Below, one piece after another: positions 1,747-20,186 of a DNA stretch of 64,000 nucleotides (position 1 is the first letter of the stretch; each line of letters opens with the position of its first letter). The notes below the pieces were generated by a model. That model searched no databases, had not been told where the DNA came from, and was given only the letters and a program-made list of their open reading frames with translations. The stretch comes from Candidatus Woesearchaeota archaeon. GTDB lineage: Archaea > Nanobdellota > Nanobdellia > Woesearchaeales > SKIA01. The stretch lies in assembly GCA_046704725.1 (NCBI GenBank), contig JBJKRI010000002.1, forward strand, positions 18,285 to 82,284, written 5' to 3'. The position numbers and the translations under genes are program-made.

Positions 1747-1759
1747 TGGTCAGTATCCC

Positions 1760-5604: not shown

Positions 5605-7605
5605 ATGTGGATTTCGAATGTGGGGATTAGGAATTTCCGTCCGTTTTGCGGAGGAGACGATTATTTAGAGATTGATCTCCCACCGAAGTCGGCGCGGGCA
5701 ATTACTGTGGTGAAGGCGAAGTCTGACGTGGGAAAGACCACCTTTCTTTCAGCAATCGCGTGGTGTCTCTATGGTCGAGAGACTTCAGAGAACAAGGATA
5801 AAGAGCTCCCTCCTTTTAGCACATCACGATTATACGCCATGGGCGAGAAGGATATAGACAGCATGGAGGTAAGCCTAACGTTAAATGATGATGAGTCGAA
5901 CCTGCCCATTTACACTATCAAGAGAAGCCAGAATTTTCAGAAGTATACGGGCGATGATTCCGCGAACCAGCTGATTTCTCTTGGAGAGAGCTCTCTCGAA
6001 GTTGCGGAATGGGACGAGAAGAACAACTTCTTAGTTATCCCCGATTCCAGTGCGCAGAGGGTGGTGAACGAAATTCTTCCTGAAGAAATCCACTTGTTCT
6101 TCCTTTTTGAGGGTGAGAAACTAGAGAGGCATTTTAGTTTCATAGAACCCGAGACTGTCAGAGGAGCTATTGAGCGGACTTCTCAAATCGAGCAAGTGCA
6201 TCGTGCGATACGCCATCTCAACTCCGTTAAGGATAGCGTTTGGGACGAGGATGATCCCCAACCAGAGATGAAGGCGTTGCGCGAAGAAATTGACGGTCTG
6301 CAAGGACTTAACGATCAGAACGAGAGGAAACGACAGGAGCAGGAGAAAGAGATATCAGGCATGAATTCAGAGATATCCGATATCGATTCTTTCCTCGGAA
6401 AGCATGACGAAGAAGCGATTCAACAACTGAGTCTTGAAGCGCAAAGTATTGAAAAAGATTTTCAGCGGGAACGGGAAAAGCTGCGAGGCCTGAAAACCTC
6501 GTGGTCGAAAGAGGTTCTGTACGCTGCACCGCCGGCGCTCGGAGCAAAGAGCCTGTCGGAACTCCATCAAGCGCTTATCAACGAGCGTGCCAAGGACGCG
6601 CTCCAACCAAATATTGACAGCAGATCTCTCATGGATCTTTTGGAGCATAATCGATGTGTCTGCGGCCGATCTCTCGATCCGAATAACAAAGCAGATGAGA
6701 AACACATAGCACTAATCAAAAAGAAGCTGGAAGCTAACAAGCTCGACGAAGCAAGCGAATTAATCCGGGAAGGAGTCTTTAAGATACAGTCGGCATGGGA
6801 AAAAGCTTTGGGCTCTTTCGAGACCATTGAGGAATTCCATGAACAAGTGAAGGAGAAGAAGAAATATTTGAGGGAGAAGGAGTCCCTCCTGCAGGAGAAA
6901 CAAGAGCGGCTAGTATCCTTAGGAGATAACGTTGTTGAGACGAAGCAACGCAGAAAAAACGAGCTGGAGATGGCGAGGAGACGGTTAGAGGAGAGCAATG
7001 CCCGCCTCAAGCTAGCGATGCAAAACCGGGGAGTCGAAATCGCGCAGAAAAGAAGAGACCTGGAAAGGAAAGGCAGAAAGCTCAAGGGATACGAATTGTC
7101 GAAGAAAAAAGCGGCATTTCTTGACTCCTCCCTCGAAGCGCTAGAAAATATCCGCGATAGCATCCTCAGCGAGGTTCGCCAGAAGGTTCAGCAAGAGACG
7201 TGGAAAAGCTTCTCTAATATCCATTGGCTCAAAGACAAATATACAGACTTCATCATTACGTCGGATTACGAGCTCCGCCTTTGTGACTCTCAAGGAAGTA
7301 ATTGGATAGCTAATCTGGCAGGAGGACCGAAACAGATTTTTCTGCTATCCTTTATCGCGGCTCTGAACAAGGTATCGGGCTTCAGGTTCCCAGTACTCAT
7401 AGATACGCCGATGGCAAATCTCGATCAACAGCAGAGATTGAATGTCGCCTCTTTGCTGCCCATGTATCTCAAAGACTCTCAGGTTATCATTCTTGTGAAG
7501 GATCAGGAATACGGAGAAGAAATCCGCAAGCTGATACTGCCCAGACTATCTGAGGAGTACGAGTTCCGGATTAATGACGGATGCACGAAGGTGATACGGT
7601 GCTGA
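5605..7605 (+). CDS. Rad50/SbcC/DndD-like ABC ATPase with coiled coil and CxxC zinc hook
   Basis: N-terminal Walker A KAKSDVGKTTFLSAIAWCLYG. Central RCVCGRSL hook flanked by long K/E-rich coiled coils. C-terminal signature LAGGPKQ plus Walker B FPVLIDTPMANLD. Confidence 0.8.
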   Translation: MWISNVGIRNFRPFCGGDDYLEIDLPPKSARAITVVKAKSDVGKTTFLSAIAWCLYGRETSENKDKELPPFSTSRLYAMGEKDIDSMEVSLTLNDDESNLPIYTIKRSQNFQKYTGDDSANQLISLGESSLEVAEWDEKNNFLVIPDSSAQRVVNEILPEEIHLFFLFEGEKLERHFSFIEPETVRGAIERTSQIEQVHRAIRHLNSVKDSVWDEDDPQPEMKALREEIDGLQGLNDQNERKRQEQEKEISGMNSEISDIDSFLGKHDEEAIQQLSLEAQSIEKDFQREREKLRGLKTSWSKEVLYAAPPALGAKSLSELHQALINERAKDALQPNIDSRSLMDLLEHNRCVCGRSLDPNNKADEKHIALIKKKLEANKLDEASELIREGVFKIQSAWEKALGSFETIEEFHEQVKEKKKYLREKESLLQEKQERLVSLGDNVVETKQRRKNELEMARRRLEESNARLKLAMQNRGVEIAQKRRDLERKGRKLKGYELSKKKAAFLDSSLEALENIRDSILSEVRQKVQQETWKSFSNIHWLKDKYTDFIITSDYELRLCDSQGSNWIANLAGGPKQIFLLSFIAALNKVSGFRFPVLIDTPMANLDQQQRLNVASLLPMYLKDSQVIILVKDQEYGEEIRKLILPRLSEEYEFRINDGCTKVIRC

Positions 7606-8549
7606 AAATCAAAGATTTGAGGGAGGTGTTGGGGAGGAACCTCGGAATATCGTACGAAATGAGAGACAAGTTCAGACAGGTACTCTCAGGACACGTCTTT
7701 AGCACGGGAGAGTATGACCAGAAGACGATTTTTCTATTATCCGTTGCACTCGCGAAGTACATGAAACAGAAGAGGAAACCCTTCAAAGGAGGCTCCACTA
7801 CCAAGAGAATTGGGCTTGTGAACATCAGTTCGTTAGAAGACGAGGAACTGTGGTACTTGGCATCAGTCGCGTTCGAAGAAACCAGAAGTCTGAAGACGCT
7901 TACGGATGGCCCGGAACTGAGAAAGATATGTGAAGAGTACGCCCACAGAGGTATCGATGAGCTTCTTAAGCTCACCCACGAATTTGGAACACAAGATGGA
8001 TTTGTGCTCAGGCTTGAGGCGCTTAGCCGAGAGGCTATGAAGAAATCGACGATTTCAGTTAGCGGTACTGCAGTATCCAATCTACGAGCTCTTGTGGAGC
8101 TAGGTGAGAAAATAAACCTCGAGTTCAAATCTACTCTTAGAATCAACTTGCACACCAAGAAGCCAGACAAGGAGATTACCTTCTCGGTGCTAAAGACTAT
8201 CGCCGCTTTTTTGAACACTGGAGGGGGAACTCTCTTGATTGGCTATAACGAGAAGGACGACTCTTTTCTGGACGTTTCGACAGACAACTTTCCCGATAGC
8301 GACAAGTATGAGCTTTTTCTTGTCAACCAGATACGGGATCGAATCGGTTCTGACTACACATCGTTCATCAAGATGCGCTTCTCCACGGCAGAAGGGCATA
8401 CAGTATACGTAGTCGACTGTGAGCCCTCGCCCAGTCCTGCGTATGTAAAGGAATCGGATAAAGAGAAGTTCTTTATCAGGCAAGGTCCCTCAACTCAAGA
8501 GTTAACGGGAAGCGCTATGGCAAAGTTCCTCAAGGACCGCTTCGAATAG
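7581..8549 (+). CDS. AlbA_2 (Schlafen-like, divergent AAA_4) domain protein
   Basis: C-terminal ...EFKSTLRINL...VLKTIAAFLNTGGGTLLIGYNEKDD... matches the AlbA_2 core. Start overlaps the end of the upstream ATPase gene by 25 nt, suggesting translational coupling. Confidence 0.65.
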   Translation: MHEGDTVLKIKDLREVLGRNLGISYEMRDKFRQVLSGHVFSTGEYDQKTIFLLSVALAKYMKQKRKPFKGGSTTKRIGLVNISSLEDEELWYLASVAFEETRSLKTLTDGPELRKICEEYAHRGIDELLKLTHEFGTQDGFVLRLEALSREAMKKSTISVSGTAVSNLRALVELGEKINLEFKSTLRINLHTKKPDKEITFSVLKTIAAFLNTGGGTLLIGYNEKDDSFLDVSTDNFPDSDKYELFLVNQIRDRIGSDYTSFIKMRFSTAEGHTVYVVDCEPSPSPAYVKESDKEKFFIRQGPSTQELTGSAMAKFLKDRFE

Positions 8550-8961
8550 CATTCTCGACTTTTTGAGGAATCTCGTCCAGCCGAAGAACATCGTGTTCCC
8601 AAACCCTAATCACACTCCAACCTCGCTCCTCAAACCATTCGTCCTTCTCGCGGTCCCGCTCCACGTTCCGCGCGAGCTTCGGCCCCCAATACTCAACGTT
8701 CGATTCCGGCATCCGGAAGTGCTCCGGGCACTTGTGCCAGAAGCAGCCGTCCACGAATATCACCGTCCGACGCGACACCATCGTGATGTCGGGCCTGCAG
8801 CGTATCTCCGGGAAGTACTTGTGCAGGGAATACCTGTATCCCGCGCGGTGCAGCGCCCTCCGGAGCCGTAGCTCCGGCTTCGTGTCCTTCCCGCGCACCC
8901 GCGACATGATGCGGCTGCGCACCGCCTTCGACACCGTATCCACTGGACAGCCGTGGTGGAC
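8530..8961 (-). CDS. vsr: very short patch repair endonuclease
   Basis: ...SRVRGKDTKPELRLRRALH...VIFVDGCFWHKCPEH... matches the Vsr family (E. coli FTHGCFWH). The track ORF is longer (to 9180) and the start is uncertain. Confidence 0.75.
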   Translation of the reverse strand, partial: VHHGCPVDTVSKAVRSRIMSRVRGKDTKPELRLRRALHRAGYRYSLHKYFPEIRCRPDITMVSRRTVIFVDGCFWHKCPEHFRMPESNVEYWGPKLARNVERDREKDEWFEERGWSVIRVWEHDVLRLDEIPQKVENAIRSGP

Positions 8962-9033
8962 GCCTTCATAAAAGCGTTTGGCGTATGGATGCCCAGCGAT
9001 CGAAAGGATTATAAAGCGCGTCCGAGAGGCTGA

Positions 9034-10731
9034 TTGATGGGGAGGGATGAGATGACGAGAAAGCGTCTGACCGTCGCGGATTTCTTCTGCGGCGCGGGCG
9101 GATGGAGCGAGGGATTCCGGCAGATGGGCTTCGAGATGCGTTTCGCGCTCGACCACTGGCAGCCGGCCGTGGATACCCACGAGCTAAACCATCCCGACTG
9201 CGAGACCGTCCGCATGGACATCCTCGAGCTCGACACCCCCGAGAGGATAGACGCGGTCGTCCCCGACACGGATATCATCGTCGGCTCTCCTCCGTGCGTC
9301 TCCTTCAGCCATTCCAACAACGCGGGCAAGGCCGACAAGTCGCTCGGCGTCCGCCTCATCGAATCCTACCTGCGCATCGTCCTGTGGAAGAAGAGCAAGG
9401 GCGTGCTCAAGCACTGGTGCATGGAGAACGTCCCGAACAGCGCCAAGTACACCAAGGACCGCTACACGTGGAAGGAGCTCGGGCTCCCGGGGAAGGGCCC
9501 CGACCTCGAGGTCCCCGTCCGAGAGTTCCTCGTGGCGGCCGACTTCGGCACGCCGCAGACGCGCAGGCGCTTCGTGTGCGGGGACTATCCGGTGCCGGAG
9601 AGGACGCACGACGAGGAGTCCTGGGTCACGATGCGCCACGTGCTCCGGTCGTTGGGCGAGCCGCTCGGGAAGCGCCCACGGACGGCGAAGGATCCGGTCT
9701 TCGGCTTCTCGCTCCCTGCCAAGCGCCTCACCGACCACTACTATGACACTCGCGTCGCGCCGTTCGAATGGGAGAAGGCCCGTCGCCAGAAGGAGGACCA
9801 CGGCTATATGGGCAGGATGTCCTTCCCCGAGAATCTTGACCGTCCCAGCAGGACGGTCATGGCGACGCGCTCGGCGAGCACGCGCGAGGCCATCATCCTC
9901 GGCGCGGGCACCGACGAGGATGGCGACCCTGTCTACCGGCTCCCGACCATCAGGGAGGTCGCGTGCTACATGTCGTTCCCCATCACCTACCAGTTCCAGG
10001 CGGACTCGGAATCCAACAAGTACCGTCTCGTCGGCAACGCCGTCTGCGTCGGCATGTCCCGGGCGATCGCGGCGGCGATGCTCGACGCGGAGGGGCGGCC
10101 GCGGCCCGAGGGTTTCATCGCGCAGGACATCGAGCCGCCGGGGACGGATCTCACCGGGCTGCGCAAGGAGATAAAGGAGCCGTCTCCCCGGAGGGCGGAC
10201 GCTCGTTTCAAGCGTCACGTGCCGTACCTGAAGGTCCGGAGCTTCCGCGTCGAACTCACGAACGAGCCTTCTGATTTCGACAAGGATTCCATCGTGTGGG
10301 ACGCCGTGCTTCACTACGGGAGCGGCAAGTCGGCGGAGGCCGTCAGTATCCCGTTGCAGTATGCGATGGCGCTCGCGAAGCAACTGCCGCAGTTCCCCGC
10401 GTTCCGTTCCGCCTTCTCTGATATCGTCGAGCAGTTGCCCGACGCGGAGGGTTTCCAGGATCTCTTCACGCAGCGGCTCCGTGGCGAGCGTCTCCTCTCG
10501 CCTTCGGAGGCATTGGAGGAGGTGCGCCGCCTCGTCGACGAGCATCTTCCCGAGGACCGCTTCGGGGATGTCGAGCTGAGGATCCCGCCGTCGTTCCGGC
10601 TGAGCCGCGGACGCATCCCCGGCCGTATCGCGTTCGCGCTCTTCGCTGTGCGTTCCATCGCCGACAAGGTCAATGGAAAAGCTTCACGGTCGGCCACGGC
10701 CCCGCAGCAGGCGGCCGTGCTCTCGGACTAG
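9034..10731 (+). CDS. DNA (cytosine-5)-methyltransferase with C-terminal extension
   Basis: Motif I DFFCGAGG, motif IV GSPPCVSFS, ENV motif (MENV). 565 aa. Confidence 0.85.
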   Translation: MMGRDEMTRKRLTVADFFCGAGGWSEGFRQMGFEMRFALDHWQPAVDTHELNHPDCETVRMDILELDTPERIDAVVPDTDIIVGSPPCVSFSHSNNAGKADKSLGVRLIESYLRIVLWKKSKGVLKHWCMENVPNSAKYTKDRYTWKELGLPGKGPDLEVPVREFLVAADFGTPQTRRRFVCGDYPVPERTHDEESWVTMRHVLRSLGEPLGKRPRTAKDPVFGFSLPAKRLTDHYYDTRVAPFEWEKARRQKEDHGYMGRMSFPENLDRPSRTVMATRSASTREAIILGAGTDEDGDPVYRLPTIREVACYMSFPITYQFQADSESNKYRLVGNAVCVGMSRAIAAAMLDAEGRPRPEGFIAQDIEPPGTDLTGLRKEIKEPSPRRADARFKRHVPYLKVRSFRVELTNEPSDFDKDSIVWDAVLHYGSGKSAEAVSIPLQYAMALAKQLPQFPAFRSAFSDIVEQLPDAEGFQDLFTQRLRGERLLSPSEALEEVRRLVDEHLPEDRFGDVELRIPPSFRLSRGRIPGRIAFALFAVRSIADKVNGKASRSATAPQQAAVLSD

Positions 10732-12074
10732 TCCGTCCTCGTGAACGCCCCGTGTATGACCTTTTTCAGATAGTCCGTCCGGATGAAGAACCCTTTCTTC
10801 ACGACCTCGATGCCTCCCGGGGCCTCGACAGTGTCATTGCCGTCGCTCGCTTTCGGGCGTGTCTGCAGTATCTCGCCCATCGCGCCGGTCAGCTTGTCGG
10901 CCTTCTTCGCCTTGACGAGCCGCTTCGCCTGCAGCCAGTCGCGCCGCATGGTATCGAGCGTCTCTGTGTTCGGACGATGGTAGATGATGGAGTGGAGTAT
11001 GGCCTTGCCTTGCGGCGCTCCGCGCTTCGGGAGCAGCAATATGACGAGCAGCATTCGTTGGACGTCCTCGAAGGCCTTCGAGTCCTCCCACTCGGTCGTG
11101 ATTATGTCGTTGTAGTCGAACCCTCGCAGGCTCATCGCATAGATGGGACGCAGTCCAGGGTTGCAGCGGACGGTCTTCACATTGATGCCCGATTCCAGCA
11201 GCTCCTTCGCGTGCTCCTCCCCCTTGCGCAATCCGAGTGCCCTATACACGACGCTCGCCGCATAGCTCTTCGCGCCGCGCGAGCTGTTCCCGCCGAACTC
11301 CTCGCGCAGCTCGTCGATGGTCTTCCCCCAATACTGCATGCTCTCGATGACGATGCGCGCCATCAGCTCCGAAGGGTCGTCGACGCGCAGCCTGGTCATG
11401 AGCGAGGCCTCCGTGCCGATCTCGGCGCGGGCACGCTTGAGTATGACGTCTAGCAGCGTCCGCCGGAGCGCGAACGCGCGCGACGGCGCTTCCACCGTTC
11501 GCTTCCCGTACCGCACCCGTCGCATCTCGCCTTTGGATCCTTTCCGGCGCGCGACGAGGAGGAGAGTGTCCGATTCGCTGATGGTGTCGGGCTCGCCCGC
11601 GACGACCTTCCGCTTGATCGACTCCCAGTCGTGCGCGAAGACTTTCCAGTCGTTCGCCGTCGGCGTCCAGAGCGTCGCGGTCTCGACGCGCGAGTCGAGG
11701 AAGTCGTCCGCTTCGCTGTAATAGATGATGAGCAGCCGCTCCATCTTCTTCCTGATCTTCGCGCCCGTCCATCTCTCCTTGCGGATGCTCTCGAAATCGA
11801 TCATGCCGAGCGTCAGGGGATACTTCGGGCCGCCGTGGCGGTTGAGAGGCGCGGTCTTGAGCTCCACTCCCGCCTTCGGGAAGTCGGGGCGGCTCTCGTT
11901 GTCGCGCTCCTTGCCCATGATACGCTCGATGATGTTCCCGACCCCGCTCTTCCCTTTCGGTCTCTTGAACGTGAGCCCTCGCTCGGCCGCTATCTGACCG
12001 ATGCTCTTGCCTTCGAGCGATTTCGCGAAAGCGAGGATGCTCTTCGGTTTGGAGTCGTCGAAGGATTGTCGCAT
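10728..12074 (-). CDS. Sau3AI-like (MutH-family) type II restriction endonuclease
   Basis: RPDFPKAGVELKTAPLNRHGGPKY resembles the Sau3AI/MutH N-terminal catalytic region. About 450 aa, similar in length to Sau3AI. Start set at an internal Met; the upstream part of the track ORF is low-complexity. Tail-to-tail with the C5 methyltransferase gene. Confidence 0.7.
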   Translation of the reverse strand: MRQSFDDSKPKSILAFAKSLEGKSIGQIAAERGLTFKRPKGKSGVGNIIERIMGKERDNESRPDFPKAGVELKTAPLNRHGGPKYPLTLGMIDFESIRKERWTGAKIRKKMERLLIIYYSEADDFLDSRVETATLWTPTANDWKVFAHDWESIKRKVVAGEPDTISESDTLLLVARRKGSKGEMRRVRYGKRTVEAPSRAFALRRTLLDVILKRARAEIGTEASLMTRLRVDDPSELMARIVIESMQYWGKTIDELREEFGGNSSRGAKSYAASVVYRALGLRKGEEHAKELLESGINVKTVRCNPGLRPIYAMSLRGFDYNDIITTEWEDSKAFEDVQRMLLVILLLPKRGAPQGKAILHSIIYHRPNTETLDTMRRDWLQAKRLVKAKKADKLTGAMGEILQTRPKASDGNDTVEAPGGIEVVKKGFFIRTDYLKKVIHGAFTRTD

Positions 12075-12405
12075 GCCAGAACCCGCTCCCCGCTCCCTAT
12101 TAATTGTTGCTCTTCTCCCCATCCCCTCACTCCCACACGCCTCCGTCCATTTCCCGTCCCTCGTCGACCGTGTCAGGGATTGCGCGCTCTCTTTCGATCG
12201 CGCCTTCATTTCGCTCCCCTGTACGCATTGACGTCGGTGAGCTGCTCGGCGCGGAGCTCGTTCTCGACGTGAACTCGCCCAATGCCTTGTCTTTCTCGGG
12301 TGCTGTCGTCTCCCCGGGCGGTACCGGTTTGCTCGTCCCGCATCACACCGTCGTCACGCCGGGCATCTGGCCCCGTCAGACCCTGGAGGAGCACGAGCGC
12401 GCTTT

Positions 12406-12427
12406 CCTGACGCGCATCGCCGCCTAG
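12406..12427. repeat. 22-bp junction repeat J1 (cctgacgcgcatcgccgcctag)
   Basis: Exact or near-exact copies at about 13146 and 13693, each at the boundary of small cassettes. Confidence 0.7.
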
Positions 12428-12720
12428 CCGTCTGCGACGATCCCGCTCTCCACGAGCGCTGTGTCGAGCGCGAGGAATCGTTCGACGAGCGGGTGTTTCT
12501 CGTCCAATCGGTACAGCCGCGCTTTCCCGCGCTTTCCCGCTCCGCGCAATACCTTCGCTCGTACCAGCCCGTCCCAGACGGGCTTGGCGGTCTGGAAGGC
12601 CATTCCTTCCTCGCGCACGAGGTCCGCGAGCGCGTGGCTGAATTCGCGATTGTCCAAGAAATAGTCGATGATGCGTACAGTCGGCGAGGCCCCGAGCACC
12701 TGCCGGAAGACCGTTTCCAT
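12424..12720 (-). CDS. winged-helix DNA-binding protein
   Basis: 98 aa with an HTH-like pattern (...EFSHALADLVREEGMAF...RLYRL...). Confidence 0.45.
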   Translation of the reverse strand: METVFRQVLGASPTVRIIDYFLDNREFSHALADLVREEGMAFQTAKPVWDGLVRAKVLRGAGKRGKARLYRLDEKHPLVERFLALDTALVESGIVADG

Positions 12721-12846
12721 ACCGCATGAAAAGATTAAACGGATTTAAGTTTATCGCTCGCGTGGCCGGTTTTTCCTTCACACGTGCCTGACTCCTTCCG
12801 GAACGCGGACGGTCCTCGCTTTGAAGGGCGCATCCGTTGGCAGGGC

Positions 12847-13089
12847 ATGCCCTCCCTCGAGCGTCATATCCTCCGCAAGCTCTACCGTCGCCGCTGTATC
12901 GGCGCAAAGCACACCGCAGCGGAGAACGCCCTTTCCGGTGTGCCTGCGCATCTTCGCAAGCGCGCGAAGCACGCCCTCGCAGGGCTCATCTCGGACGGCT
13001 TGGTGCGCGCGAAACCGACGGCCTACGGTCTGCAGGTCAGTCTCGAGCCCGCTCGTTTGCCCGAGATCAGGCGTATCCTTGGCGTCTGA
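12847..13089 (+). CDS. small winged-helix protein
   Basis: ...LSGVPAHLRKRAKHALAGLISDGLVRAK...YGLQVSLE... wHTH-like. Start chosen at an internal Met. Confidence 0.3.
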   Translation: MPSLERHILRKLYRRRCIGAKHTAAENALSGVPAHLRKRAKHALAGLISDGLVRAKPTAYGLQVSLEPARLPEIRRILGV

Positions 13090-13145
13090 GCGCCCCCTCA
13101 CTCCTGATATTTATCCTCGGGACGGTCTCGTCACGGACAAGATCT

Positions 13146-13167
13146 CCTGACGCGCATCGCCGCCTAG
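13146..13167. repeat. 22-bp junction repeat J2
   Basis: cctgacgcgcatcgccgcctag, identical to J1. Confidence 0.7.
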
Positions 13168-13186
13168 TGCCCTTCACTGGACACCT

Positions 13187-13441
13187 ATGCCCGCAAGCTA
13201 TACCTTTATCTTCTCCGTCGTCCTCTACATGGTCATGACGCGTTTGACGGCGGTGATCGAGGAGGAGGACGGCGTGTTCATCGCGAGCTGTCCGGAGATC
13301 GGCACCGTCAGTCAGGGGGCGACGCGGAAGCGCGCCTTGCGGAATCTCAAGGAGGCGACGGAGCTGTACCTCGCCGAGTTCCCGCACGCTCGCAGCGCGC
13401 AGGTGACTGCTTTCGAGGTCGCCGATGCCGCCAAGGCGTAA
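13187..13441 (+). CDS. hicB: HicB-family antitoxin (UPF0150)
   Basis: ...LTAVIEEEDGVFIASCPEIGTVSQGATRKRALRNLKEATELYL... is the typical HicB N-terminal domain. The true start is probably the internal Met near 13235. Confidence 0.6.
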   Translation: MPASYTFIFSVVLYMVMTRLTAVIEEEDGVFIASCPEIGTVSQGATRKRALRNLKEATELYLAEFPHARSAQVTAFEVADAAKA

Positions 13442-13655
13442 GCTCTCCGGAGCGGAGTGCGTGAAGGTCCTCTGCAATTGTTTCGGTTTCCGCGTGGCGC
13501 GCCAGAGCGGCAGCCACATCATCTTGCGCAAGGAGACTGCGGATGGCTCTGTGGGAACTGTGGTGCCGGCGCATCGTGCCTTGCGTATCGGCACGATCAA
13601 GAGGATCCTCCGTCTCGCGCACGTGGATGAGGACGCGTTCTGGGCGGAGGTCTGA
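13425..13655 (+). CDS. hicA: HicA-family toxin (YcfA-like)
   Basis: 76 aa, ...GFRVARQSGSHIILRK... HicA pattern. Overlaps the hicB end. Confidence 0.6.
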   Translation: MPPRRKLSGAECVKVLCNCFGFRVARQSGSHIILRKETADGSVGTVVPAHRALRIGTIKRILRLAHVDEDAFWAEV

Positions 13656-13692
13656 TGCTGCTACGCCTGCTGCCCCCCTCCCAACCATGACT

Positions 13693-13714
13693 CCTGGCGC
13701 GCATCGCCGTCTAG
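13693..13714. repeat. 22-bp junction repeat J3 (cctggcgcgcatcgccgtctag)
   Basis: Two mismatches relative to J1 and J2. Confidence 0.6.
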
Positions 13715-13728
13715 CCCTGCCCCATCGT

Positions 13729-14052
13729 TCACGGCAGCAACAGCCGTAGCTTCTCCGCCACGTTTTGCACCACTCGCTCCGGAGCCTTTCCCGCTTTCCG
13801 CGCCTTTCGCGCGATCCAATCCACTGTCCGCACTTGGTCGGCGAGGACCACGCCTTTCACTTTTCCGCGCAGCGCGACCTCGAAGGGATAGCCTTTCGCG
13901 CGTGTCGTGATCGGGCACGCGATGAGCAGTCCTGTGCGTCGGTTGTACTCGACGGGTGAGAGCACCAACGCCGGCTTGCCGCGTTGTTCGTGCCCTGCTG
14001 TGGGTGAGAGGTCGAGCCAGACGATGTCGCCCCTACCAGGCTTCGCGTCCAA
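13729..14052 (-). CDS. mazF: MazF/PemK toxin
   Basis: ...GDIVWLDLSPTAGHEQRGKPALVLSP... Confidence 0.75.
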   Translation of the reverse strand: MDAKPGRGDIVWLDLSPTAGHEQRGKPALVLSPVEYNRRTGLLIACPITTRAKGYPFEVALRGKVKGVVLADQVRTVDWIARKARKAGKAPERVVQNVAEKLRLLLP

Positions 14053-14263
14053 CGGGCCCTCCCCAGTCGGTCTCTTCTTGCCGCTCCACTCCCTCGAGGA
14101 GCGCGGCCAGCCGTTCCTCCTTGCTGGGTCGTTTGAGCGTGATGCCGTTTCCTGCCTTGTCCAGCTCGAGCTCCGCGTCGAGTTGCCAGTCGAGGTCGTC
14201 GACGACGCTTTTCGGCAGGCGGATGGCGTAGCTGTTGCCCCATTTGCGGATGCTGATCCTCAT
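14033..14263 (-). CDS. mazE: AbrB/MazE antitoxin
   Basis: MRISIRKWGNSYAIRLPKSVVDDL... SpoVT-AbrB pattern. Confidence 0.7.
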   Translation of the reverse strand: MRISIRKWGNSYAIRLPKSVVDDLDWQLDAELELDKAGNGITLKRPSKEERLAALLEGVERQEETDWGGPVGREAW

Positions 14264-14264
14264 G

Positions 14265-14326
14265 TAGATACAAAGTATATCCTTCTTTATCTGTCTTCCG
14301 GCAGGACGACCGGAAAAGTGATCCCG
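14265..14326. promoter_or_regulatory. P upstream module copy a (TATA-like ATAAAG plus inverted repeat cttccgg..ccggaaaag), directly upstream of mazE
   Basis: ...aagtatatccttctttatctgtcttccggcaggacgaccggaaaagtg... is repeated at about 15460 and 16080, each directly upstream of a minus-strand antitoxin start. Confidence 0.6.
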
Positions 14327-14351
14327 GCGGACCCCTCCATCTGTTCTCGCT

Positions 14352-14488
14352 GGACGCCTACGCCCGCAGGCTCTGCCTTTATCTTCTCCGTCGTCCTCTG
14401 CATGGTCGTGCGTTTGACGGCGGTGATCGAGGAGGACGGCGTGTTCGTCGCGAGCTGTCCGGAGATCGGACGCATCCTGGGCATCTGA
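14352..14488 (+). pseudogene. hicB remnant (5' fragment duplicate of 13176-13311)
   Basis: About 130 bp near-identical to the start of hicB, with a 3-bp indel. It lacks a proper start, ends after ...CPEIGRILGI and has no hicA. Confidence 0.55.
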
Positions 14489-14542
14489 GCTCTCGTGCCC
14501 GATCCGATTGCGAGACGATCCCTCATGCCGCTGCTTCGCGCT

Positions 14543-14806
14543 TCAGAACACTGCGTCCTCGTGCGAAACGAAGAACGTGACCTTCTCGTTCCTCTCCAGC
14601 TGTTTCACCGCGTACTCCATCCGCGCCGCCGCGGATTTGTCGTCGCAGAGTATCGCGTGCAGCAATCGTCCGTACCTGTGCCCGCGCACGTACTTCGAGC
14701 CGCGTCCGCTCTTGTGCGCGTCCATCCGTCTCGGAAGGTCGTTGGTGATGCCCGTATACAACGTTTCATCAGAACATTCGAGCAGGTAGACGTACCAGAA
14801 GTCCAT
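14543..14806 (-). CDS. GIY-YIG nuclease domain protein
   Basis: MDFWYVYLLECSDETLYTGITNDLPRRMDAH... is the canonical GIY-YIG N-terminus; 87 aa. Confidence 0.7.
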   Translation of the reverse strand: MDFWYVYLLECSDETLYTGITNDLPRRMDAHKSGRGSKYVRGHRYGRLLHAILCDDKSAAARMEYAVKQLERNEKVTFFVSHEDAVF

Positions 14807-14848
14807 CAGAAAACGTTCCGGCCGTCTTCTGACTTAAGCGTTTCGCGG

Positions 14849-15241
14849 TCAATCGATGACAGTCACGCCGGCCTTCCCGAACTCCGCGTCGAAGGTCGCG
14901 ATCCGGTCAGCGCCGTGCGCTCTCATCTGCGCGAGCAGCACGGCGTCCGTGAAGGAGAATCTGTTCTTTCCCGTGAATATCCTCCACGCCTCCTCGAGCT
15001 CTTTCGCGTTCGTGAAGGCTATCGCCACGCTTGTCCGCCGCACCTCAGTCCCGGCGAGCACGGCCACGCGCTTGTTCACGCGCCGCGTCAGGACGTTGAG
15101 CAGCTCGTCGAAGACGTACTCGCTCATGATGATGTCGTCGTCCACGATGCGCGCGAGCACCGCGACCGCGCGCTCGTGCAGCGCATCGCGCGGGTTGAGG
15201 TAGGCGACGTACACGTTCGTGTCGATGAAGGTCCTAGCCAT
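14849..15241 (-). CDS. vapC: PIN-domain toxin
   Basis: MARTFIDTNVYVAY... carries the PIN N-terminal Asp; 130 aa. Confidence 0.75.
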   Translation of the reverse strand: MARTFIDTNVYVAYLNPRDALHERAVAVLARIVDDDIIMSEYVFDELLNVLTRRVNKRVAVLAGTEVRRTSVAIAFTNAKELEEAWRIFTGKNRFSFTDAVLLAQMRAHGADRIATFDAEFGKAGVTVID

Positions 15242-15458
15242 ACAGGGTCTCGTCGATCTCTTGGCTCAGGCGTTCTGTGCCCTTTCCGAAGTCGAAGGTC
15301 CGCATCCGCGTGATCGGGATGGTCTTTCCTTCCTGCTGGTCGAGCCACCCGCGCATCGCCTCGTTCATGGCTTGCCCCACGTTCTTGTCCCGCCGCGCGG
15401 CGGCGATCTTGAACTCCTTGAAGAGCGCGTCGTCCACATTCCGCACACTGATTGTCAT
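15234..15458 (-). CDS. vapB: VapB-type antitoxin
   Basis: MTISVRNVDDALFKEFKIAAARRD... Start moved to the internal Met; the track ORF extends into the P repeat. Confidence 0.55.
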   Translation of the reverse strand: MTISVRNVDDALFKEFKIAAARRDKNVGQAMNEAMRGWLDQQEGKTIPITRMRTFDFGKGTERLSQEIDETLYG

Positions 15459-15459
15459 A

Positions 15460-15522
15460 CAAGTAAACAAGTATACTTTCTTTATCAGTCTTGCGGCGCC
15501 AAGACCGGAAAACCGGGCGTTG
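15460..15522. promoter_or_regulatory. P upstream module copy b
   Basis: ...aagtatactttctttatcagtcttgcggcgccaagaccggaaaacc... Confidence 0.55.
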
Positions 15523-15537
15523 CGCATAGCTAGAGAC

Positions 15538-15894
15538 TCAGGGTATCGTCACAAGGCCGAGGCTCACGCGCAGCGCCTCGTCCAGTTCCAGCATCGTCTT
15601 GACTTCCCCGACCCGTTTCACCAGCCGCCTCTTGTCCACCGCGCGGATCTGGTTGCACAGCGCTTTGGAAGGCTGCGAGAGCCCGCTCTGTTTCCCGAGC
15701 GCGACATCCGTCGGGTGCAGCCGATCCACGTGCTTGGACGTCACCGGCGCGACGATCGTGGTGGGACTGTAGGCGTTACCGATATCGTTCTGGATCACCA
15801 CCGCGGGCCGGGCGTTGCGGATCTCGCTGCCGACGGTCGTGCCGAGATCCACGAGCCAGATCTCGCCGCGTCTCACAGCTCGAACGCGTCCCAC
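15538..15894 (-). CDS. mazF: MazF/PemK toxin
   Basis: ...GEIWLVDLGTTVGSEIRNARPAVVIQND... Confidence 0.75.
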   Translation of the reverse strand: MGRVRAVRRGEIWLVDLGTTVGSEIRNARPAVVIQNDIGNAYSPTTIVAPVTSKHVDRLHPTDVALGKQSGLSQPSKALCNQIRAVDKRRLVKRVGEVKTMLELDEALRVSLGLVTIP

Positions 15895-16079
15895 TCGGCG
15901 AATTCCTCCATCTGTTCTGCTGCGACCGCTTCGTACTCTTCTATGAGCCGTTCGCGCAGCCGTGCGCGGCGCTGCCCCTGCGCCAGGCGCCGGATGACCG
16001 TGTCGTAGCTCTCCCGCTCGTCCTTGAGCGTGTCCAGCGCCGCTTTGGTATCCTCGTGGAGCTTGATCGTCGTGACCAT
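15873..16079 (-). CDS. putative antitoxin (68 aa)
   Basis: MVTTIKLHEDTKAALDTLKDERESYDTVIRRLAQ... Only the first about 68 codons of track ORF 15873..16769 look coding; the rest is antisense to the plus-strand gene. Confidence 0.45.
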   Translation of the reverse strand: MVTTIKLHEDTKAALDTLKDERESYDTVIRRLAQGQRRARLRERLIEEYEAVAAEQMEEFAEWDAFEL

Positions 16080-16142
16080 GGTATACCTAAAGTATACCTT
16101 CTTTATCTGTCTTGCGCCTTCCGTCCCGGAAAACCCAGTGAT
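16080..16142. promoter_or_regulatory. P upstream module copy c
   Basis: ...aagtataccttctttatctgtcttgcgccttccgtcccggaaaacc... Confidence 0.55.
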
Positions 16143-16211
16143 GGCGCTGCCGTCCCTGCGGGCCAGCGTGCCTGCACAATCTTTTTCAACCGCCCTACCG
16201 CGAATCGTACC

Positions 16212-16946
16212 ATGAAAGCGCGCGACTATCTCGAGAAGCTCGGCGAGCTCGCGCCGCGCGTCGAGCAGCTCGCCCGCATCGAACGCAACAGGAAGCGACG
16301 CCTCAACGAGCTCCTTCCGAGCCTCGAGGCGCCGACGGCGGACGACCTCAAGCGTCTTTCCGTCATGACCGCGAACGAGCGCCGGCTCGTGCACATGGTC
16401 CAGCTCGCCGTCGACCAGTGCGCCACCTACGCCTCCAAGGCGTCGGCGCGCGAGGTCCGCAGCACGGCCGTCCACGCCGAGCGATTGTTCGCGGATTTCA
16501 CCAAGCACCTGAAAGAACGCGGCAAGCGCCTCGATGTGCAGGAACGGTTCGTGGAAGAACCGCGCGCGCAGGACTTCCATGCCGCGCACGTCATCGCGCA
16601 GATGCTGCAGCGCGAGGACGAGGAGACACAGAGGCTCTTCACGCGTGCGCGTTCCGTCTTCGAGGAATCCTCCCAGGCGCTCGAGCGCCTGCTCGCCCGC
16701 ATCGCCGAGCGAAAGGACGGTCCTGTCCGCGCCATGGCGCTCGGCGTCCTCAATCAGGTCAGGGCCCATCCCTTCGGCACGATCGCGTCTGCTGTCGCTG
16801 TCACATCCCTTTCCTCGCTCATGGTCGCGCTCAGCCGCGACCCGCAGCTCGCGGCCGCCTTCAACGGACCCCTCTCCAGCGTCGTCGTGGTCTTGTCATG
16901 CGTCACGACGATCGTCCCGTTCGCGAGGGTCACAGGGGAGAAGTAG
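16212..16946 (+). CDS. hypothetical protein (helical, C-terminal hydrophobic segment)
   Basis: K/E/R-rich, coding-like; the internal Met MKARDYLEKL is the likely start. The overlapping minus-strand ORF is antisense junk. Confidence 0.4.
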   Translation: MKARDYLEKLGELAPRVEQLARIERNRKRRLNELLPSLEAPTADDLKRLSVMTANERRLVHMVQLAVDQCATYASKASAREVRSTAVHAERLFADFTKHLKERGKRLDVQERFVEEPRAQDFHAAHVIAQMLQREDEETQRLFTRARSVFEESSQALERLLARIAERKDGPVRAMALGVLNQVRAHPFGTIASAVAVTSLSSLMVALSRDPQLAAAFNGPLSSVVVVLSCVTTIVPFARVTGEK

Positions 16947-17003
16947 AGCGCCTGACGGTTCCCTCCCCGCAACCCTTAAAGACCCGCTCCCCCTCGTCCG
17001 TCC

Positions 17004-17711
17004 ATGCTCACGCTGTTCAACTCGCTCACCCGCAAGAAGGAGCCCTTCACCCCGCTCACCAAGGGCGAAGCGAGGTTCTACGCCTGCGGGCCCACCGTCT
17101 ACAACTACGCGCATCTCGGCAATCTCCGCGCCTTCTTGTTCGCCGACATCCTCCGCCGCGCATTGCAGTACGACGGCCTCAAGGTCAAGGAGGTCATGAA
17201 CCTCACCGACGTCGGGCACCTCACCGACGACGCTGACCAGGGCGAGGACAAGCTCGAGAAAGAAGCCAAGAAGGAGCACAAGTCCGCCTGGGATGTCGCG
17301 ACGTTCTACACCGAGGCGTTCCTCCATGATATCGACGCGCTCGATATCGAGCGCCCCGACGTCCTGCCCAAGGCGACCGACCATATCGCAGAGCAATGGA
17401 GCATGGTCGAGACCATCATGCGAAACGGCTATGCCTACGTCACCGCGGATGGCATCTACTTCGACACGTCCAAGCTCGATGACTACGGCAAGCTCATCCC
17501 CAACTTCGACCCATCCTCCCTAGAAGCGGGCAAGCGCGTCGACCTCGGCGGCAAGCGTCACCCGACCGACTTCGCCCTCTGGAAGTTCTCCCCTAAGGAT
17601 GAGAAGCGCCAGATGGAGTGGACCACGAGCATGGAGGTCGTGGTCGACGAGGCCATGGAAGAAGAGCTGCGCTCTATCGCGGGGAAGAACCCGCATGTGC
17701 GGATCGATTGA
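17004..17711 (+). CDS. cysS: cysteinyl-tRNA synthetase, N-terminal half (catalytic HIGH region through the ...DFALWKF... segment)
   Basis: [19 protein letters not shown] contains the HIGH motif and matches the CysS N-terminus through [18 protein letters not shown]. It then diverges into a 26-aa novel tail and stops. Confidence 0.85.
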
Positions 17712-17768
17712 AACGGGAAATCCTCCATAGCAACCGGAATTCCTCACAAGACATCCACGGCCGCAACG
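17712..17768. promoter_or_regulatory. F1 upstream module copy 3 (reverse orientation), upstream of the relBE cassette inserted in cysS
   Basis: aaacgggaaatcctccatagcaaccggaattcctcacaagacatccacggccgcaacg. Confidence 0.6.
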
Positions 17769-17812
17769 TATTTTGCCAATCGCAGGCTTGAAATACTTGG
17801 AGGCACTCTTCC

Positions 17813-18001
17813 ATGATTATGGACGCTGCGGAGATGGAAAAGCGGATACGGCGCTTGGAACGCGAGGTCGCAGACTTGCGCGCTTCGTCTGGAGAGCCGC
17901 TCACGCAAGACGAGCGTGAAGCCGTCGAGAGCTATCGCCGCGCGAAGAGCGAGGGAGAACTCATCCTCCACGAGCGAGTCTTGGAAGAATTCGGTCTGTG
18001 A
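17813..18001 (+). CDS. small antitoxin-like protein
   Basis: 62 aa, paralogous to 19327..19515 (both end in ...FGL or ...LGL). Overlaps the downstream RelE gene start. Confidence 0.5.
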   Translation: MIMDAAEMEKRIRRLEREVADLRASSGEPLTQDEREAVESYRRAKSEGELILHERVLEEFGL

Positions 18002-18258
18002 CCCGCACGCTGCTCTGGCAGCCCCGTGCGTTGCGGTATCTCCGGCGCATATCGAGAGTGAACGTGCGGTCGTTGCTGAGACGGGCGGAATCGCTGTGCG
18101 ACAATCCATTCCCGAAGGATGTGGAGCTCGTGCGGGGAGAGAAGGGGCTGTACCGTACGCGTGTCGGCGGATATCGAATTCTCTACACGTTCAATGAGCT
18201 TTCTGTCGATGTCGTGAATGTTGATAAACGCGGGCGCGTCTACAAGAGGAGAAGATGA
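17998..18258 (+). CDS. RelE/ParE family toxin
   Basis: ...GGYRILYTFNELSVDVVNVDKRGRVYKRRR; paralogous to 19512..19766. Confidence 0.7.
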   Translation: MTRTLLWQPRALRYLRRISRVNVRSLLRRAESLCDNPFPKDVELVRGEKGLYRTRVGGYRILYTFNELSVDVVNVDKRGRVYKRRR

Positions 18259-18284
18259 CGATATACCCAGCAAAGAGGGCTCTT

Positions 18285-18348
18285 GGTACGGAACGATCCG
18301 GAACCTCAAGGGAGCCACAGAACTCTGCCTGGAGGATCTTCCAGCGCC
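18285..18348 (+). pseudogene. hicB-like C-terminal fragment remnant
   Basis: Translated RNLKGATELCLEDLP versus HicB RNLKEATELYLAEFP; there is no full ORF. Confidence 0.3.
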
Positions 18349-18417
18349 CCACCGTGAATACCTGCAGTGTGGATATCCGACCGCACGGCTTTTATACCTT
18401 CGTCGCTCCGCACACGC

Positions 18418-19227
18418 ATGAAGAAGGTCAAGCTCACCGTCACGGGCTTTCCCGGCTGGCACCTCGAGTGCACGGCCATGGGCGTCAAGTACCTGGGAGA
18501 GACCTTCGACATCCACACGGGCGGCATCGACCACATCCCCGTCCACCACACCAACGAGCTCGCCCAGGCGGAGGCGGCCTTCGGCCACGACCACGCCCGC
18601 GTCTGGATGCACAACGAGTTCCTCCTGGACGAGACGGGCAAGATGGCCAAGAGCAAGGGCGATTTCCTGCGCCTGCAGACACTCATCGACAAGGGCTACG
18701 ACCCCCTCGACTACCGCTACTTCCTCCTCCTCACGCACTACCGTAAACCCGTCACCTTCACCTGGGAAGCCTTGGATGCCGCCGCGAAAGCGAGAAAGCG
18801 CCTCACCGACAAGGCCATCGAGCTCAAGAGGACCGTCTATGGAGGCGACACCGCTGCTGCCCCCTCGTCCCCCCATCCCTCCAAGGAACGCATGGCGTTC
18901 CAGGCCCGCTTCGCGCAGGCCATCAACGACGACCTCAACACCCCGCAGGCATTGGCCGTCGTCCACGACATGATCAAGAGCGATCTTGCCGGCACGGAGA
19001 AGCTCTCCCTCCTCCTCGACTGGGACCAGGTCCTCGGATTGCGCCTCAAGCAGGCGGAGCGTTCCGGAGAGGATGTCCCCGAAGACATCCAGCGCTTGGT
19101 GGATGAACGAGAGGCTGCACGCAAGGACAAGGACTGGAAGCGCTCCGACGCTCTGCGCGACGAGCTCGAGGAGAAGGGCTGGCAGGTCAATGACACGCCC
19201 GAAGGCCCCGTCCCCGAACGGCTCTGA
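18418..19227 (+). CDS. cysS: cysteinyl-tRNA synthetase, C-terminal half (GFPGWHLEC region, KMSKS as KMAKSKG, anticodon-binding domain)
   Basis: MKKVKLTVTGFPGWHLECTAMGVKYLGETFDIHTGGIDHIPVHHTNELAQ...KMAKSKGDF. Own ATG, with a TTTTATACC box about 25 bp upstream. Confidence 0.85.
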   Translation: MKKVKLTVTGFPGWHLECTAMGVKYLGETFDIHTGGIDHIPVHHTNELAQAEAAFGHDHARVWMHNEFLLDETGKMAKSKGDFLRLQTLIDKGYDPLDYRYFLLLTHYRKPVTFTWEALDAAAKARKRLTDKAIELKRTVYGGDTAAAPSSPHPSKERMAFQARFAQAINDDLNTPQALAVVHDMIKSDLAGTEKLSLLLDWDQVLGLRLKQAERSGEDVPEDIQRLVDEREAARKDKDWKRSDALRDELEEKGWQVNDTPEGPVPERL

Positions 19228-19284
19228 ACCGGAAATCCTCCGTCCGTTCCGGAACTTCTCACAAGACACGCACGCCCCAAAGCT
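19226..19284. promoter_or_regulatory. F1 upstream module copy 4 (reverse orientation; contains the 10-bp palindrome GTTCCGGAAC)
   Basis: aaccggaaatcctccgtccgttccggaacttctcacaagacacgcacg. Confidence 0.6.
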
Positions 19285-19326
19285 TCTTGCCGTTCCGTAA
19301 CCCTTATAGTCGCGGAGGACTCCCGT

Positions 19327-19515
19327 ATGGACATAGTGGAGAACGGTATCCCTGAACGCGTCGACCGCATCGAGCGCCGCTTGGACGAGCTCGAGAAGCG
19401 AGCGGACGAGACCGCGGATGCCGCCGACCGCGAGGCGATCGCCGCGTACGAGCGTGAGAAAGCGCGCGGCACGCTCGTCCCTGATGCCAAGCTCAAACGA
19501 GAGCTTGGTCTGTGA
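19327..19515 (+). CDS. small antitoxin-like protein (paralog of 17813..18001)
   Basis: 62 aa; a TTATAG box lies about 20 bp upstream. Confidence 0.5.
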   Translation: MDIVENGIPERVDRIERRLDELEKRADETADAADREAIAAYEREKARGTLVPDAKLKRELGL

Positions 19516-19766
19516 GTAGAGAGATTCGCTACTCGAACCAGGCTTACATCTTCTTGCGCCGCCTGCGCACCCCGCTCGCCAAGACCCTTCGCCGTCGCAT
19601 CCTCGCGTTGGAAAGACAGCCCTTTCCGCGTGGCGTCCGGATGCTGCAAGGGACAGGAGGCATGCTCCGCATACGCAGCGGCGATCATCGTATCCTGTAC
19701 ACCGTCTCGGACCGCCACGTCGACATCGTGCGCATAGACAAGAGAGGCCGCGTCTACAAGCGCTGA
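19512..19766 (+). CDS. RelE/ParE family toxin (paralog of 17998..18258)
   Basis: ...GDHRILYTVSDRHVDIVRIDKRGRVYKR. Confidence 0.7.
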   Translation: MSREIRYSNQAYIFLRRLRTPLAKTLRRRILALERQPFPRGVRMLQGTGGMLRIRSGDHRILYTVSDRHVDIVRIDKRGRVYKR

Positions 19767-19793
19767 GCAGCATGATTTAAGAACACTGCTACC

Positions 19794-20168
19794 ATGGAGA
19801 CGCGCATGGAACCCGAATCCGCCAAGACCCTCGTGCGCGTCCTCGGCGCGCTCCACCTCGCCTTCGGTATCATCGCCGTGCTCGTCGCTCTCGTCGGCGG
19901 CGCCTTCACGCGCTTCATGGGCATGCAGGGCATGGTCATTGCAGGAGCCCTCTTCGGCTTGATCGTCGCGCTCGTCTTCCTCTACGCGGTCTTCGCCGTC
20001 GTCGTCGGCATCGGATTGATCCGCCTCGAGGCATGGGCGCGCATCCCCGGCATCGTGCTCGGCGCGATCAGCTTGTTCTCCATCCCCATCGGGACCGCTC
20101 TTGGCGTGCTGGACATCTACTTCTTCGGTTTCGACAAGGACGTGCGGAAAATCTTCAAGAAGAAGTGA
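19794..20168 (+). CDS. small integral membrane protein (3-4 transmembrane segments)
   Basis: Strongly hydrophobic helices with a basic C-terminal tail. Confidence 0.5.
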   Translation: METRMEPESAKTLVRVLGALHLAFGIIAVLVALVGGAFTRFMGMQGMVIAGALFGLIVALVFLYAVFAVVVGIGLIRLEAWARIPGIVLGAISLFSIPIGTALGVLDIYFFGFDKDVRKIFKKK

Positions 20169-20186
20169 AAAGAAAAAGAAGGGTCC

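Follow-up and report, generated by a model that had tools for sequence, protein, structure and literature searches.

Short Repeats and a Predicted Shared Promoter Module in a Compact Toxin–Antitoxin Array of a DPANN-like Archaeon

Introduction

Why should non-homologous toxin–antitoxin (TA) operons that lie side by side in one archaeal genome share nearly identical stretches of non-coding DNA? The question is raised by positions 12406–16135 of a 64-kb stretch of contig JBJKRI010000002.1 (the whole of which is called the window below). A first-pass annotation had read this region as an integron-like array of TA cassettes, with a recurring 22-nt junction repeat (22-mer) and a recurring module that would supply each unit with a common promoter and operator. 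Its modular build, the boundary repeats, the shared promoter and the local copying of units stood up to analysis, whereas the integron likeness and the common operator did not. The window was extended by flanks of 7.8 kb on the left and 2 kb on the right, taken from an independent assembly, which gave about 74 kb in all.

Results and Discussion

A Predicted Promoter Module Common to Three TA Operons

A module of about 55 nt occurs in three copies, each directly 5′ of a minus-strand antitoxin start codon (ATGs at 14263, 15458 and 16079), as the first-pass annotation had proposed:

14264–14317, minus strand, module M1, with GATAAAG at −28 to −22, AAGACA at −34 to −29, an ATATAC box, and TTTTCCGG at −54 to −47
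15459–15514, minus strand, module M2
16080–16135, minus strand, module M3, containing GGTATAC-N4-GGTATAC

Pairwise matches between the copies reach 96% over 26 nt, 93% over 27 nt and 82% over 45 nt, where chance predicts 0. When the copies are aligned on the gene strand, TTTTCCGG is invariant at −54 to −47 and is followed by eleven variable bases, by a near-invariant block at about −36 to −10 (sAAGACwGATAAAGAArG(a)TATACTT) and by some ten variable bases up to the ATG. The module includes CAAGACA at −35 to −29, which resembles the transcription factor B recognition element (BRE), and a (G/A)TATAC box between the TATA element and the start codon.

The host is a DPANN-like archaeon, judging from markers encoded in the window (eRF1, an RFC-type AAA+ protein, translin and Nop) and from the nearest cysteinyl-tRNA synthetase (CysRS) sequences, which come from Woese/Pacearchaeota-type metagenome-assembled genomes (MAGs; 56–65% identity). 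Of 40 operon-first genes, 26 have an A/T-rich hexamer that starts between −33 and −24 relative to the start codon, the mode being sharp and located at −28, and this promoter geometry suggests that the genes of the window are leaderless and TATA-driven. In all three modules, GATAAA lies at exactly −28, the modal TATA position, so that their geometry is that of an archaeal BRE/TATA leaderless promoter. Since the host is an archaeon with leaderless genes, the ATAAAG described earlier as TATA-like, about 28 bp from the ATG, can be regarded as a genuine TATA-position element, and the location of GATAAAG at the mode would make the module a promoter common to the three operons, as had been supposed. 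The firm part of this reading is that three TA operons without homology to one another appear to re-use a single archaeal core promoter, of the kind that serves leaderless mRNAs; its activity, and a transcription start at the ATG of each operon, are predicted from the sequence.

The proposed common operator fared less well. The antitoxins downstream of the module are of the MazE/AbrB, ribbon-helix-helix (RHH) and PF02697 types, and their mutual similarity is no more than expected by chance. Because the three differ in fold, the shared sequence cannot be the cognate operator of each, and the modules cannot be three cognate antitoxin operators. The inverted repeat CTTCCGG...CCGGAAAAG, which had been described as conserved, is present in M1 alone; only its TTTTCCGG arm is invariant, and M2 and M3 carry other short palindromes. 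Each unit has instead a repeat of its own in the variable stretch beside the ATG (ATAC-TTT-GTAT in M1, ACTTGT-TT-ACTTGT in M2 and GGTATAC-TTTA-GGTATAC in M3), and these unit-specific repeats may be better candidates for cognate operators than the shared boxes.

The TATA variant TTTATCT/AGATAAA has six copies in the window, five of which are located at TA promoters, in either orientation. The forward promoter of the antitoxin gene hicB in the same array (13196–13217, TATACC-TTTATCT) was observed to resemble the module on the opposite strand at 16090–16113 (GTATACCTTC-TTTATCT); the TATA/GTATAC pair may be used in both orientations.

A 22-nt Repeat at Unit Junctions

The 22-mer, CCTGRCGCGCATCGCCGYCTAG, occurs at the three places reported for it, always on the plus strand:

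12406–12427, plus strand, copy 1; its CTAG forms the stop codon of the minus-strand gene 12424–12720 and of an orphan plus-strand open reading frame (ORF) ending at 12427
13146–13167, plus strand, copy 2; in the intergenic space between the winged-helix gene wHTH2 (57 nt past its stop codon) and hicB (62 nt before the ATG at 13229)
13693–13714, plus strand, copy 3; 38 nt after the hicA stop codon and 14 nt from the mazF stop codon

These are the only matches in the 64 kb when up to 3 mismatches are allowed, and 100 dinucleotide-preserving shuffles yielded none. Copies 1 and 2 agree at each of 23 nt, copy 3 differs by two transitions, and the similarity stops abruptly on both flanks. The copies bound a 740-bp unit of two small divergent genes and a 547-bp unit that holds hicBA. 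They are non-coding, copies 2 and 3 being intergenic and copy 1 closing an orphan ORF without homologs, in agreement with the early remark that the repeat sits at 3′ unit boundaries and is conserved in no single reading frame. As the plus-strand ORF ending in copy 1 is an orphan, there is no support for a role of the 22-mer in restoring the 3′ end of a conserved gene. Direct reading of the 22-mer revealed no dyad symmetry, DNA folding gave stems of at most 4 bp, and no Rfam family was found for it.

Two look-alikes were set aside. The sequence at 15519–15533 (GCGTTGCGCATAGCTAG; 22-mer-like GCGCATAGCTAG at 15522), 4 nt from the second mazF stop codon, resembles a shortened 22-mer (GCGCAT...CTAG), and a gapped scan placed it within chance; an inverted 17/20 match inside a restriction-enzyme gene (11343–11362) is likewise at chance level. 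With 37 occurrences against 228 expected, the tetranucleotide CTAG is about six times rarer in the window than predicted, yet each of the three 22-mers retains it; of the 37 occurrences, 12 fall in a low-GC segment (the Pbe segment described in the last section).

Gene Content of the Array

The array is built of abutting units of 0.2–0.74 kb with nearly no spacers. Besides four type II TA operons there are two small divergent genes of DNA-binding type, a GIY-YIG gene and the decayed remnant of one fusion:

12424–12720, minus strand, orphan protein of 98 aa with no Pfam match and no homolog; AlphaFold2 model with a predicted local distance difference test score (pLDDT) of 65
12847–13089, plus strand, wHTH2, winged-helix protein of 80 aa, divergent from 12424–12720, assigned from its structure model
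13229–13441, plus strand, hicB antitoxin (Pfam); longest ORF from 13187, with TTTATC 22 nt 5′ of the ATG at 13229
13425–13655, plus strand, hicA toxin (Pfam)
13729–14052, minus strand, mazF/PemK toxin 1 (Pfam)
14033–14263, minus strand, mazE (AbrB-type) antitoxin 1 (Pfam)
14347–14488, plus strand, remnant of a fusion between the 5′ part of hicB (promoter and initial ~24 codons) and wHTH2-like last codons, with the joint at the microhomology CCGGAGATCGG
14543–14806, minus strand, stand-alone GIY-YIG protein of 87 aa (Pfam), with its own TTAAGT promoter
14849–15241, minus strand, vapC (PIN) toxin (Pfam)
15234–15458, minus strand, putative RHH antitoxin (vapB), with sub-threshold Pfam matches
15538–15894, minus strand, mazF/PemK toxin 2 (Pfam)
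15873–16079, minus strand, PF02697/DUF7557-type antitoxin (Pfam)

The four operons consist of adjacent or overlapping antitoxin and toxin genes from recognized families. Pfam matches were obtained for HicB (DUF7387), HicA, MazF/PemK (twice), MazE, GIY-YIG, PIN and the VAPB_antitox/DUF7557 antitoxin; HicB lies exactly at its curated cut-off and all other listed families lie above theirs. The gene content first read from this region (hicBA, mazEF, a GIY-YIG gene, vapC and a second mazF with an antitoxin) is confirmed by these matches, and only vapB is weak, its identity depending on sub-threshold RHH matches and position. Two winged helix-turn-helix genes had also been proposed. The plus-strand one (12847–13089) has a confident winged-helix model (pLDDT 90) with structural matches to TubR, ArsR, MarR and F93 (template modeling scores of 0.6–0.8), whereas the minus-strand one (12424–12720) is the orphan with the poor model. 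Homology searches with this orphan and with the protein designated RelE_d returned the queries themselves only. TA paralogs in the window share about 50% nucleotide identity and at most 43% amino acid identity, and the repeats 80–100%. Small autonomous units, each with a promoter of its own, are thus packed into a compact array within a defense island.

A Truncated Copy of hicB

One unit of the array has left a second, incomplete copy of itself. Positions 14350–14469 match 13177–13302 at 89% over 126 nt, and the tail to which this hicB remnant (hicB′) is joined resembles that of wHTH2 (26/32 identity, with an alignment score about 5 standard deviations above shuffles). The homology between hicB and hicB′ starts at 13174–13177, only 7–10 nt past the end of 22-mer copy 2, so the edge of the 22-mer coincides with that of the copied unit. 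Because hicB′ is fused to a wHTH2-like tail, both units would once have had a second, differently ordered copy that was later deleted down. Local duplication followed by microhomology deletion thus appears to have reshaped the array, which is again a firm part of our reading and agrees with the earlier view that units had been copied or truncated locally.

A Third Repeat Family and the Split cysS Gene

A third repeat family, J3, was found outside the region covered by the first-pass annotation. Its four copies (40–58 nt, pairwise 82–92%) share the sequence CCGTTCCGGAAATCCTCCGT-N5-7-CGGAAnTyCTCACAAGACAnCCACGGCCGCAA, with the palindromes TTCCGGAA and GGAATTCC:

1134–1185, minus strand, J3 copy a, upstream of mazE/mazF (485–1041), at −144 to −93
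1685–1742, minus strand, J3 copy b, between the stop codon of a HEPN gene and a relB/relE-like pair (1218–1635)
17716–17766, plus strand, J3 copy c, a few nt past the stop codon of the cysS N-half and upstream of a TA pair (17813–18258)
19229–19280, plus strand, J3 copy d, right after the stop codon of the cysS C-half and upstream of a TA pair (19327–19766)

Copies b, c and d end about 47–50 nt 5′ of an antitoxin ATG. The TA units preceded by J3 belong to two families, MazEF-like and RelE/ParE-like, with only about 50% nucleotide identity in their coding sequences; copies a and b, which precede mazE and relB-like genes, respectively, are 92% identical over 52 nt. J3-like sequences at ~18290 and ~12140 scored no higher than shuffled sequence, and we do not count them as copies.

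The motif CCGGAA[AC] recurs in the promoter module, in J3, in the GIY-YIG promoter and between the two small regulator-like genes. Within 2.1 kb of TA junction DNA lie 13 of its 36 window copies and all four copies of TTCCGGAACG, although these counts are not independent because the copies of the module and of J3 are homologous. The TTCCGGAACG copy at 12796–12805, a sequence shared with J3, is intergenic between the divergent genes 12424–12720 and 12847–13089, which suggests a possible autoregulation of these small regulator-like genes and a link to the TA junction motif.

J3 copies c and d begin 0–5 nt past stop codons in a split cysS gene, one behind each half (N-half 17004–17711 and C-half 18412–19227, covering Pfam tRNA-synt_1e positions 2–181 and 187–300, respectively). 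The C-half possesses a separate TTTTATA box and a separate ATG, and the RelE/ParE-type TA pair 17813–18258 lies between the halves. The split is kept in the lineage, as many N-halves of ~240 aa occur among the CysRS matches and the syntenic nearest relative is also split. Between its halves, this relative has three unrelated genes, and the gap is therefore a variable slot. An empty-site comparison downstream of the C-half failed, the neighboring small proteins not being homologous.

Tests for Integrons and Other Mobile Elements

By the following tests, the locus does not qualify as an integron. No tyrosine or serine recombinase and no transposase domain was found in sizeable ORFs of the 64-kb window, and none was found among the called genes of the flanks, so that the search for a nearby integrase suggested with the integron-like reading returned no IntI in ~74 kb. 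Integron attC sites were defined as at least two sites within 4 kb with R″ (RYYYAAC) and R′ (GTTRRRY) cores 40–160 nt apart; a regular-expression scan of both strands of 1–3000, 11900–16400 and 17500–20300 found no such core pair. DNA folding of ten junctions revealed no single-strand hairpin (z of −0.85 to +0.49), the exception being M3 (z −3.7) because of its GGTATAC palindrome. The units are not co-oriented; they lie on both strands, each with its own promoter.

The pdif architecture (a 28-bp site with two inverted 11-bp arms and a 6-bp spacer) was not found in the 22-mer either. Cassettes borne by miniature inverted-repeat transposable elements or insertion sequences were rejected, as no inverted-repeat pair brackets any unit and no transposase domain was found in the window.

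Comparison with Other Genomes

The 22-mer had 0 matches in the GTDB species representatives and 0 in IMG/VR. Its single match in JGI metagenome contigs, inside a Kelch-like ORF of a high-GC bacterium, was dismissed as chance. Apart from chance matches, these three collections yielded no copy of any of the three repeat families. Seeds of the promoter module and J3 gave 27 single matches in IMG/VR, none of which extended past the seed, and a blastn search of the island against plasmids and phages returned only a 164-nt similarity within mazF coding sequence. Logan SRR31309759, the one further assembly in which the locus was found, matches it at 100% over 5,361 nt, and several exact-protein look-ups for strain variants came back empty. 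The collections contain no close relative, and none of the repeats was found in the syntenic contig of the nearest one (CysRS N-half 65% identical). Among outcomes that would count against recombination, the first-pass annotation had named repeats restricted to this window and invariant among related genomes; by this standard the recombination claim is unproven, not disproved.

Origin of the Repeats

The explanation that we favor combines copying of the promoter with junctions that are att-like or that represent target duplications left by serial insertion, and it does not imply an integron; we give it an even chance of being correct. According to this explanation, the same promoter would have been copied or captured by local recombination in front of three non-homologous antitoxin genes, its conserved boxes perhaps also being kept through a shared trans-acting factor. 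The 22-mer would be a non-coding duplex junction, either an att-like core or a target duplicated by serial insertion of units at one site, and the units would be duplicated, re-ordered and deleted locally via short-homology recombination. We prefer this explanation because the repeats have sharp edges, a duplication boundary coincides with one of these edges and a flanking gene uses the stop codon within the 22-mer. J3, in front of TA units of two families, offers a parallel case. The repeats and where they lie, the promoter geometry, the gene families and the fusion remnant are shown by the data; insertion as the origin of the 22-mer copies and a factor that binds the module boxes are inferred.

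Several observations weigh against it. The 22-mer and the module have three copies each, and a single genome is available, hence no empty site, excised circle or swapped cassette. Neither a recombinase nor a transposase was found in ~74 kb, and the hicB′ and wHTH2′ remnants are without flanking 22-mers. The module, with 82% over 45 nt and 93–96% over 26–27 nt, falls short of the criterion for putative mobile promoters (at least 80% over at least 50 nt). Geometry is the basis for deducing promoter activity and a leaderless start, and selection cannot be separated from recent copying as the cause of conservation.

If the repeats belonged instead to a shared regulon, the 22-mer, the module boxes (TTTTCCGG and GTATAC) and the J3 palindromes would be bound by a host regulator, or by a few of them, governing TA and defense units together. 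The winged-helix protein encoded between two 22-mers would be the candidate regulator, and sequence identity would be kept by selection, not mobility. The block-wise conservation of the module with variable spacers of fixed length fits this explanation, as do the concentration of CCGGAA[AC] and TTCCGGAACG in TA junctions, the occurrence of TTCCGGAACG between the divergent regulator-like genes, the confident fold of wHTH2 and the lack of single-strand folding at the junctions, which would make them duplex sites. However, 26–27 nt at 93–96% including TATA and BRE exceeds what a transcription-factor site needs, the 22-mer is without dyad symmetry and lies at gene 3′ ends outside promoters, and the motif counts come from homologous copies; we regard a regulon as rather unlikely, while still a serious contender. 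A site-specific system, in which a recombinase encoded elsewhere uses the 22-mer and/or J3 as duplex att sites to excise and insert TA cassettes in the manner of integron cassettes or Xer-dependent pdif modules, appears improbable to us. Such a system would agree with unit sizes of 0.5–0.74 kb, with near-identical, sharp-edged short repeats between unrelated genes, with a duplicated cassette whose homology begins at a repeat edge, with the position of J3 0–5 nt past both cysS-half stops and with the different gene content of the cysS gap in the nearest relative; clusters of attC sites lacking integron-integrases (CALINs) without a nearby integrase are also common in archaeal MAGs (PMC9668308). 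It is difficult to reconcile with the lack of a recombinase in ~74 kb, of attC cores and folding and of dyad symmetry in the 22-mer, with three repeat families of 3–4 copies each, with mixed unit orientation, with J3 on one side only of its cassettes, and with the absence of polymorphism in the one other assembly, which is identical.

A variant of the cassette idea is an undescribed DPANN-type shuffling, which would act on duplex sites (the 22-mer and the CCGGAA-box J3) and not on folded attC, with its recombinase elsewhere and its self-promoted TA and defense cassettes entering intergenic gaps including that of the split cysS; we hold it to be very doubtful. Least likely of all, the repeats may be neutral relics, that is, the last functionless traces left by gene conversion tracts and by old local segmental duplications. 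Such an origin suits both the local duplication and microhomology deletion demonstrated here and the failure to find the repeats outside the host genome, but decay predicts graded similarity and not islands of 22–52 nt at 82–100% with unrelated flanks; moreover, the repeats join non-homologous genes and keep their positions relative to start codons.

Relation to Known Systems

Archaeal integrons have the canonical folded attC structure and are known in DPANN-group MAGs (PMC9668308). Similar to the TA cassettes of integrons and CALINs (the Vibrio superintegron; archaeal integrons, PMC9668308), the array consists of sub-kilobase units, many of them self-promoted TA pairs, between which lie repeats much closer to each other in sequence than the genes are. 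Different from these, the locus has no IntI, R″/R′ cores or imperfect-palindrome hairpin; its repeats are of a duplex type, 22–52 nt long and in three families, its units are mixed in orientation, and J3 is located on the promoter side of the unit.

Putative mobile promoters were described from the interval −150 to −50 in complete prokaryotic genomes, and transfer between Archaea and Bacteria was not observed (Matus-Garcia, Nijveen and van Passel 2012; PMC3575422). The likeness to our locus lies in near-identical upstream regions in front of non-homologous genes of one genome, with no recognized mobile element. The shared part here is an archaeal core promoter as predicted (−54 to −10), which is shorter than the 50-nt criterion, whereas J3 copies a and b, with 92% over 52 nt, reach both the 80% and the 50-nt thresholds.

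The pdif modules of Acinetobacter plasmids are small, Xer-dependent and often composed of TA pairs, with 28-bp sites of two inverted 11-bp arms in alternating orientation. The array resembles them in its small units, often TA, that are bounded by short conserved sites, and differs in that the 22-mer has no dyad symmetry and all of its copies are direct. In Helicobacter, restriction–modification (R-M) units are reportedly inserted with long target duplication, as Nobusato and coworkers in 2000 and Furuta and coworkers in 2010 are said to have shown against empty sites. Common to both cases are selfish units of the post-segregational-killing type, direct repeats of tens of bp and the lack of a transposase. 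The Helicobacter insertions are bacterial and were compared with empty sites, whereas two units here share three tandem repeat copies and the locus is known without an empty site.

The genes of the array are thus ordinary, and both repeat-bounded TA cassettes (in integrons) and promoter re-use in bacteria (PMC3575422) are already known. What differs here is the archaeal, leaderless-promoter version, the presence of three families of short duplex junction repeats and the lack of integron hallmarks. If the junction repeats are recombination sites, they would represent a new route, independent of integron machinery, by which reduced-genome archaea assemble and reshuffle defense and addiction modules. 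If their role is regulatory, many non-homologous TA systems of one archaeon would be under the joint control of a dedicated promoter class (the AGATAAA/TTTATCT TATA variant plus CCGGAA boxes), contrary to the usual picture in which each antitoxin autoregulates its own operator. With one genome and 3–4 copies per repeat, the locus is a well-documented curiosity and not a demonstrated mechanism.

Island Context and Other Features of the Window

The TA array is set in a defense island together with a PbeA/PbeC segment, an R-M unit and TA arrays on either side. The GC content of the TA stretch (0.62–0.63) equals that of the genome, and that of the neighboring Pbe segment is 0.47; the composition of the island argues for long residence or intragenomic spread over recent import. 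The Pbe segment (3409–8549, 47% GC) encodes PbeA (E 7e-196), PbeC (E 1e-115) and a Schlafen/AlbA_2 protein, and it is probably a recent acquisition within the island. Directly left of the TA array, the R-M unit (8530–12074) encodes a Vsr endonuclease, a C5 cytosine methyltransferase and a MutH/Sau3AI-like type II restriction enzyme. The Logan assembly breaks at 2949 and 11994, which bracket the Pbe segment and the adjoining R-M unit. A TA-like pair at 1760–2800 combines a helix-turn-helix nucleotidyltransferase (MNT) with a weak HEPN partner, and its promoter (2743–2800) is dense in GGTAC/GTACC palindromes.

An Rfam search of 11900–20300 gave no match at E of at most 1, and the sole match in the window was a tRNA-Phe. 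An ORF at 39737–40558 has Pfam matches to Sigma-70 region 2 (E 2e-9) and region 4 (E 2e-8) on a contig that is otherwise archaeal. The giant ORF at 41096–50509 (3,137 aa) contains long internal repeats, for example 47160–47808 and 43929–44586 with 80% identity, and probably encodes a surface protein. A perfect 98-nt direct repeat (60576–60673 and 60765–60862, 189 nt apart) is T/C-rich, with ORFs overlapping on both strands, and could be a recent duplication or an assembly artifact.

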